A stretch of 64,000 nt of DNA from Escherichia phage SP27. Under the pieces are notes generated by a model. The model had not been told where the DNA came from and searched no databases. It worked only from the letters and a program-made list of their open reading frames with translations. Each line of letters begins with the position of its first letter. Position 1 is the first letter of the stretch. The translations under genes were made by a program, and so were the position numbers. Shown here one piece after another: positions 43,128-43,218 of the stretch. Where the stretch lies: the sequence record LC494302.1; one strand, 5' to 3'.

Positions 43128-43218
43128 GGAAGGGTGGCAGAGCGGTTGATTGCACTCGCCTACTAAGCGAGCAAGTGTTAGAAATAACGCTTCGTGGGTT
43201 CAAATCCCACCTCTTTCG
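43128..43218 (+). tRNA. class II tRNA (Ser-type architecture) with apparent anticodon ACT
   Basis: GGAAGGG-TG-GCAGAGCGGTTGATTGC-A-CTCGC CTACTAA GCGAG-22-nt variable arm-GTGGG TTCAAAT CCCAC-CTCTTTC-G; architecture parallels the tRNA-Ser at 41302; anticodon read by hand from loop positions 34-36. Confidence 0.7.

Follow-up and report, generated by a model that had tools for sequence, protein, structure and literature searches.

In Escherichia coli the serine codon AGU is covered only by G-U wobble of tRNA-Ser(GCU). Seryl-tRNA synthetase (SerRS) makes no contact with the anticodon, and in E. coli its recognition is helped by the acceptor pairs G1-C72, G2-C71 and A3-U70 together with C11-G24, whereas recognition by the Phe, Tyr, His, Asn, Asp, Cys and Ile synthetases involves position 34. 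An adenosine at this wobble position was described in a 2021 review as 'universally missing' in the Ser-Arg split box, and according to the same review the 'prohibited' tRNA genes that bacteria lack are lacking in phages too (PMC8007984). Deamination of A34 to inosine by TadA is limited in E. coli to the motif UACG (PMC13170351). Natural tRNAs with unmodified A34 are known in Mycoplasma tRNA-Thr(AGU) and yeast mitochondrial tRNA-Arg(ACG) (reviewed in PMC11066159), and an engineered tRNA with the loop CU-ACU-AA, built on an archaeal body unlike that of a phage tRNA-Ser, carried no inosine in E. coli and read AGU at 9.4% and AGG at 0.36%, with AGC and AGA below detection (PMC11066159). As for phages, the tRNA region of T4 is spread by the homing endonuclease SegB (cited in PMC6409571), and a 2026 paper on a related phage lists tRNAs without anticodons (PMC13070987).

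The sequence analysed here, called the window, is a stretch of 64,000 nucleotides from Escherichia phage SP27 (LC494302.1). It has about 33% GC and belongs to an Asteriusvirus jumbo coliphage, being 99% identical to JP4, slurp01 and UB and about 91% to 121Q. A preliminary description of the window had noticed a class II tRNA with the anticodon ACT at 43128-43218, of serine-type architecture with a 3-bp D stem and a 22-nt variable region. Both ARAGORN and Rfam concur with it, all these features are present in the sequence, and we conclude that 43128-43218 is a real, conserved serine tRNA gene with A at the wobble position. As for what it does, the product is probably a working serine tRNA of the phage whose A34 is genuine and unmodified, charged by SerRS and reading AGU; the best reading is an ordinary codon-supplementing role, played by unusual means that recur across phages.

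The gene was called by ARAGORN as tRNA-Ser(act) at 43128-43219 and matched by the Rfam model RF00005 over 43128-43218 (+) with 49.9 bits (gathering score 29, E = 1.2e-8), in a full-length alignment to model positions 1-71. Its sequence reads GGAAGGG-TG-GCA-GAGCGGTTGAT-TGC-A-CTCGC-CTACTAA-GCGAG, followed by the 22-nt variable region C-AAGTGTTA-GAAA-TAACGCTT-C and by GTGGG-TTCAAAT-CCCAC-CTCTTTC-G, and the cloverleaf is its minimum-free-energy fold. The acceptor stem has 7 bp, including the two G-U pairs that had been remarked on at the outset (G2-U71 and G6-U67), the D stem has 3 bp and a possible further pair G13-T22, and the T stem has 5 bp. The variable region (43172-43193) folds into a stem of 8 bp closed by a GAAA loop, which places the tRNA in class II. 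A misplaced anticodon had been named as one way in which the initial call could fail, and in the Rfam alignment ACT stays within a canonical loop of 7 nt (CUACUAA) on a 5-bp stem, as in ARAGORN, so that any other placement was rejected. A selenocysteine, suppressor or recoding tRNA was also rejected: the geometry is 7/5, not 8/5 or 9/4, and ACU pairs with AGU and with no stop codon. No CCA end is encoded, CAA lying directly 3' of the discriminator base. The coordinates of these features and of their neighbours are collected in Table 1.

Table 1. Coordinates of the serine tRNA gene and adjoining features in the window.
Feature	Position	Strand	Basis
tRNA-Ser(ACU), class II	43128..43218	+	ARAGORN; Rfam, 49.9 bits; minimum-free-energy cloverleaf; 17 identical phage records; 121Q annotation
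Anticodon arm, stem CTCGC/GCGAG, loop C32-T33-A34-C35-T36-A37-A38	43155..43171	+	Rfam alignment; same arm in EJP2 ACT tRNA
Anticodon ACT (ACU), A34-C35-T36, complementary to serine codon AGU	43162..43164	+	ARAGORN and Rfam
Predicted sigma-70-type promoter, TGGACA, 17-nt spacer, TATAAT, extended TG	43089..43117	+	11/12 consensus matches
Spacer CAAATTTC, 8 nt, to next tRNA	43219..43226	+	sequence
tRNA with CAT anticodon (Met, or Ile2 if lysidinylated), CCA encoded	43227..43301	+	ARAGORN; Rfam, 68.4 bits

The single gene is no discovery, being identical to the tRNA-Ser(act) of 121Q and present in 16 other records. To survey the anticodon more widely, IMG/VR was scanned with a template consisting of a serine D-arm followed by the loop CTACTAA, and all matches were listed. 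There are 100 matching viral contigs, and 99 of them hold a tRNA-Ser(act) by ARAGORN. This family comprises 57 unique sequences, which fall into 23 clusters at 75% identity and use 29 distinct anticodon stems. The acceptor stem is fully paired in all 56 members compared, with extensive covariation, and no cluster at 75% identity mixes ACT and GCT tRNAs; for 55 of the 57 ACT sequences the nearest neighbour is also ACT. This separation indicates that the ACT types are old lineages. Within viral loci the two anticodons are mutually exclusive, the exceptions being 1 of 100 and 0 of 182. The same template with GCT matched at least 120 contigs, and a narrower sub-template, for which all matches were listed, gave 92 GCT against 29 ACT contigs; by extrapolation there are about 380 GCT and about 100 ACT contigs, so that ACT makes up roughly a fifth of the viral AGY-type serine tRNAs of one template. 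Cultured phages with Ser(act) include Xanthomonas phage XaC1, Salmonella phage 7t3, Rhizobium phage RHph_TM30 (so annotated) and Kuttervirus GG32, in which the adjoining tRNA is labelled 'Undet', while the representative of one IMG/VR cluster had no relative among cultured phages. The review statement that A34 is missing from the Ser-Arg box (PMC8007984) thus does not hold for phages.

In cells the type is nearly absent. Among 185,579 bacterial and archaeal species, with one genome each, the ACT template was found at 17 places, 14 of them real tRNAs, mostly in Polynucleobacter. Several Polynucleobacter genomes hold tRNA-Ser(act), often in the array Ser(act)-Gly(ccc)-Thr(cgt) and with up to four copies in one strain. 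Two cellular loci that were checked adjoin genes for a large serine recombinase, ParB/RepB, an AEP primase (AEP-TOTE), P63C and AIPR, and the Polynucleobacter context suggests that the copies belong to mobile elements or defence islands equipped with tRNAs of their own. A host origin was rejected, since there is no sequence homologue of the phage tRNA among 5,426 E. coli genomes. In the 1,848 tRNAs of 282 viral loci, A34 is sporadic outside Arg(ACG) and Ser(ACT). Other candidate A34 tRNAs called by ARAGORN in viral contigs are Asp(atc) (three), Thr(agt) (six), Tyr(ata) (two) and Ser(aga) (three), with single calls of Cys(aca), Asn(att), His(atg) and Leu(aag); separately, a 119-nt gene of Pectobacterium phage CBB is annotated as 'tRNA-Ser anticodon AGA'.

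With regard to serine identity, the discriminator of tRNA-Ser(ACT) is G73 (43218), as expected of a serine tRNA; tRNA-Leu and tRNA-Tyr, the remaining class II tRNAs, carry A73. G1-C72, A3-U70 and C11-G24 are likewise present, but position 2:71 is G-U and not G-C. In the viral ACT family G73 occurs in 52 of 56 members, G1-C72 in 55, G2-C71 in 50 and A3-U70 in 46, and G2-U71 in only three, while the version of phage EJP2 has G2-C71. To judge from these identity elements, charging by SerRS could be lowered by the G2-U71 pair of the window's tRNA.

Could the gene be a decaying copy? A non-functional G34A mutant of a GCT serine tRNA, or an artefact of anticodon placement, would be in line with the two acceptor G-U pairs, with the lack of an encoded CCA and with the fact that sporadic G34A mutants exist: the tRNA of Kuttervirus GG32 (301-389) differs from the tRNA-Ser(GCT) of Vi01 (1501-1589) only by G34A and G73A. 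As far as these two sequences tell, GG32 is a recent anticodon switch that altered the discriminator too, and such sporadic point mutants occur beside the old lineages. For the window's gene, however, the evidence runs the other way. Across 17 phage records there are no changes in its 91 nt, against 84-99% identity in the surrounding 800 nt, and the GenBank record of 121Q (KM507819) gives it the same label, tRNA-Ser(act). EJP2 has a diverged ACT orthologue of its own, just 69% identical, whose anticodon arm is unchanged and whose acceptor pairs 1:72 and 7:66 carry compensatory changes. The comparison with homologous phages that had been proposed earlier thus rules out a pseudogene. In addition, the gene has a strong predicted promoter of its own, which ends 10 nt before its start, and a promoter-like sequence matching TTGACA-17-TATAAT at 12 of 12 positions stands upstream of the EJP2 tRNA. 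It had further been suggested that homologues with GCT at the same position would expose the ACT copy as a pseudogene; relatives of the PBECO4 type do carry GCT there, but on a different body of 60% identity, which is no intact parent of a broken copy. Since two independent methods also agree on the loop, and the wider viral ACT family is long-lived with covarying stems, the reading as decay or artefact is largely refuted and in our estimate extremely improbable.

The locus itself is a place of exchange. In the PBECO4-type relatives the upstream ORF and the predicted promoter are the same as in the window, and homology stops at the -10 element, beyond which lies another cassette, with tRNA-Ser(GCT) and a different CAT tRNA; the serine tRNA and the CAT tRNA of the window are swapped in one cassette. 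Among RaK2-like jumbo phages the GCT type is found in 32 records and the ACT type of the window in 17. Four of them (JP4, WPEC3, Turkey3 and ph0011) have both, one (EJP2) has GCT plus its own ACT variant, and in the window and 12 further records ACT is the sole type. The JP4 locus (PQ330092.1, 725-1791), which corresponds to window 43100-43300, runs ORF, Ser(GCT), HNH endonuclease, Ser(ACT), Met, and in WPEC3, Turkey3 and ph0011 an HNH homing-endonuclease gene likewise lies between the two serine tRNAs. This suggests that the ACT/GCT polymorphism among near-identical jumbo phages comes from cassette exchange driven by homing endonucleases. The CAT tRNA is labelled tRNA-Met in most related records and tRNA-Ile in ph0011; it may be an elongator or initiator Met tRNA or an Ile2 tRNA dependent on lysidine.

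Such an arrangement gives some ground for a role other than decoding, in which the tRNA-shaped element would serve as a processing signal for the downstream tRNA, as a target of homing or recombination, or as a regulator. It lies a mere 8 nt from the next tRNA, is exchanged with it as a unit, and in JP4 adjoins the HNH endonuclease gene. Nevertheless, the serine identity features are, as a set, largely kept over 57 diverged sequences and the invariant anticodon fits the dominant serine codon of the phage, which is expected of a decoder and unnecessary for the other roles, and we hold a non-decoding element to be very unlikely. For the favoured reading as a decoding tRNA, the short spacer would mean a dimeric Ser-Met precursor, trimmed at the 3' side and given its CCA by host enzymes, a route taken over by analogy from the established tRNA biology of phage T4.

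Elsewhere in the window, the preliminary description had found the ACT tRNA very similar to a tRNA-Ser at 41302; the likeness is confined to the D and T arms, as is usual among serine tRNAs, and overall identity to this tRNA-Ser(TGA) is just 60%. Five nt past tRNA-Ser(TGA) there is a tRNA-like element (41396-41477, +) that scores 29.3 bits with the Rfam tRNA model, at the threshold, and has no ARAGORN call. Its acceptor stem has 7 bp, G73 and an encoded CCA are present and the T arm is good; the variable region measures about 21 nt, and the anticodon arm ACGGT-CTTCTAA-ATCGT gives TCT (Arg AGA) by position, with just about 7 nt in place of the D arm. 121Q keeps the element under the label tRNA-Leu(taa), a G-U pair of its anticodon stem having become G-C, and in EJP2 a normal tRNA-Arg(tct) is found close to the corresponding position. 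The window's element may be either a tRNA that lacks the D arm or a gene in decay.

The question then is what is read by A34. The preliminary guess, that the tRNA would read AGY or more after inosine formation, corresponds to a view in which host TadA converts A34 to I34, so that AGU, AGC and partly AGA are read and the GCU tRNA is fully replaced. This view can draw on the anticodon arm, which shares 16 of its 19 positions with the arm of E. coli tRNA-Arg(ACG) (ACUCGC-CUACUAA-GCGAGC against ACUCGG-CUACGAA-CCGAGC, with C32, U33, A34, C35, A37 and A38 in common), and on the way ACT stands in for GCT among phage tRNAs, most simply understood if both AGY codons were read. Against it, the loop has U-A-C-U where the TadA substrate motif is U33-A34-C35-G36, and this U36 breaks the UACG motif of the E. 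coli enzyme (PMC13170351). In E. coli the same ACU loop stayed free of inosine, with no detectable reading of AGC or AGA (PMC11066159). The Arg-like arm is peculiar to the Asteriusvirus versions in a family with 29 different stems, so it was rejected as a general design for recruiting TadA, and tblastn with E. coli TadA found no homologue of it in any Asteriusvirus record. What is more, AGA is used at 9.7 per 1000 codons in the phage, and inosine would cause costly missense of Ser for Arg. Conversion to inosine therefore looks quite unlikely, although partial deamination may occur, given the likeness of the arm to that of a TadA substrate. By analogy with the engineered tRNA, tRNA-Ser(ACU) is expected to keep an authentic A34 and to read AGU only.

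Codon usage in the phage suits such a decoder. The 76 ORFs of the window (15,430 codons) use AGT at 23.5 and AGC at 3.4 per 1000 codons, whereas a sample of 41 annotated E. coli CDS (13,209 codons) has AGT at 7.7, AGC at 16.4 and AGA at 1.7 per 1000. The ratio AGT:AGC is therefore 6.8:1 in the phage against 0.47:1 in the E. coli sample, AGT is about three times as frequent per codon as in E. coli, and with 363 of 1040 serine codons it is the top serine codon of the window. The comparison of AGT and AGC between phage and host proposed beforehand thus comes out as codon compensation, with the cognate codon used more by the phage and AGC favoured by the E. coli genes sampled. Further tRNAs of the window (Gly UCC, Ser UGA, Asn GUU and Thr UGU) likewise match A/U-ending codons favoured by the phage.

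The choice between A34 and G34 is another matter. Viral loci with ACT and those with GCT are alike in GC content and in AGT fraction (0.71 in both, p = 0.8), so codon usage explains why an AGY-box tRNA is carried, not why A34 is taken over G34, and the idea that ACT phages are richer in AGT or in A and T than GCT phages found no support in this comparison. A tRNA-Arg(UCU) that might protect AGA accompanies 26% of ACT and 20% of GCT loci, which is no clear difference. Another selective factor may decide, and one proposal is that A34 mainly serves defence evasion or host independence, by escaping a host anticodon nuclease or surviving host tRNA depletion. The cassettes swapped between close relatives, with a homing endonuclease between them in JP4, do resemble the pattern of an arms race, and phage tRNAs with nuclease-resistant changes in the anticodon loop are documented (PMC10264068). 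On the other side, the literature searched contains no nuclease targeting tRNA-Ser(GCU), and nothing in the window ties tRNA-Ser(ACT) to a defence or counter-defence gene. To our knowledge, no nuclease has this target. As the main purpose of A34 we consider evasion unlikely, but it is compatible with decoding of AGU.

Taken as a decoder of AGU, the tRNA would work as follows. Host RNA polymerase would transcribe it together with the adjacent CAT tRNA from the strong upstream promoter, host RNase P and 3' exonucleases would process the precursor, and the host CCA-adding enzyme would supply the CCA. Host SerRS would charge it by recognising the long variable arm together with G73, the acceptor stem and the D stem. 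On the ribosome A34 would form a Watson-Crick pair with U, so that AGU is read and essentially no other codon, and inosine misreading the Arg codon AGA would not arise because TadA needs G36. In this way the ACU tRNA would take the place of the phage-borne GCU tRNA carried at the same locus by sister phages. What the data show are gene structure, conservation, distribution and codon usage; that tRNA-Ser(ACU) is expressed and serylated, escapes modification and decodes AGU alone is what we infer. Because SerRS ignores the anticodon and the other synthetases read position 34, AGY-Ser is probably the only NNY two-codon box in which a change from G34 to A34 costs no charging; the remaining NNY two-codon boxes of the 282 viral loci are served nearly always by GNN anticodons, which fits the reading of position 34 by those synthetases.

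Whether this extends to phages in general is, in our judgement, evenly balanced. The wider proposal is that phages widely use a serine tRNA with unmodified A34 as a private AGU-only decoder, a solution that cells avoid and that would be open to phages only because the anticodon plays no part for SerRS and TadA cannot act without G36; it would give AGU-rich messages of the phage an advantage over the AGC-rich ones of the host and might escape tRNA-targeting defences of the host. A full-text search, in which bracketed forms like 'Ser(ACT)' could be missed, found no literature on phage tRNA-Ser(ACU) or on A34 in phage tRNAs, and the pattern at the level of the class, a large, old and conserved group of viral tRNAs, appears unremarked in the literature searched. 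If their A34 is unmodified, these tRNAs would be the most abundant natural decoders with an authentic A34, and no others would serve a split codon box. In that case they would be ready material for testing the wobble rules, the specificity of TadA and the supposed ban on ANN anticodons, and as natural AGU-specific tRNAs they would be useful for the reassignment of sense codons. The ACT/GCT cassette polymorphism in near-identical jumbo phages would also be a clean natural experiment on the purpose of phage tRNAs.

Compared with known systems, the gene is a codon-supplementing phage tRNA like those of the phage T4 cluster, which includes a tRNA-Ser(UGA), and departs from that type in the wobble base alone. 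In both, the tRNA genes are short and lie between small early ORFs in the genome of a large virulent phage, match A/U-ending codons that are commoner in the phage than in its host, lack an encoded CCA in some cases and form closely spaced dimers. In T4 the endonuclease is SegB, and in the equivalent cassette of JP4 an HNH gene is present. The window's tRNA differs from the T4 set, and from any cellular set, in having an anticodon that starts with A in a split codon box. Its cellular counterpart for the same codon box, E. coli tRNA-Ser3 (GCU, serV), is likewise a class II tRNA with G73, C11-G24 and the context U36-A37, from which t6A37 is expected in both; but with its G34 tRNA-Ser3 decodes AGC through a Watson-Crick pair and AGU through wobble, whereas the phage tRNA with its A34 should decode AGU only. 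Bacterial tRNA-Arg(ACG to ICG) shares the gene-encoded A34 and the loop CU-AC-N-AA, and the phage tRNA departs from it by U36 in place of G36, by its serine identity and by belonging to a split box, in which inosine would lead to missense. In Mycoplasma tRNA-Thr(AGU) and yeast mitochondrial tRNA-Arg(ACG), as in the phage tRNA, the genomic A34 is expected to stay A, but they serve four-codon family boxes in which loose reading is harmless, while the phage tRNA is virus-borne and serves the box split between Ser and Arg. Finally, the engineered M. jannaschii ACU tRNA (PMC11066159) has an artificial archaeal tyrosine body and an orthogonal synthetase, unlike the phage tRNA, but shares with it the loop CU-ACU-AA and the same host machinery for translation and modification, which makes it the direct experimental proxy for decoding.
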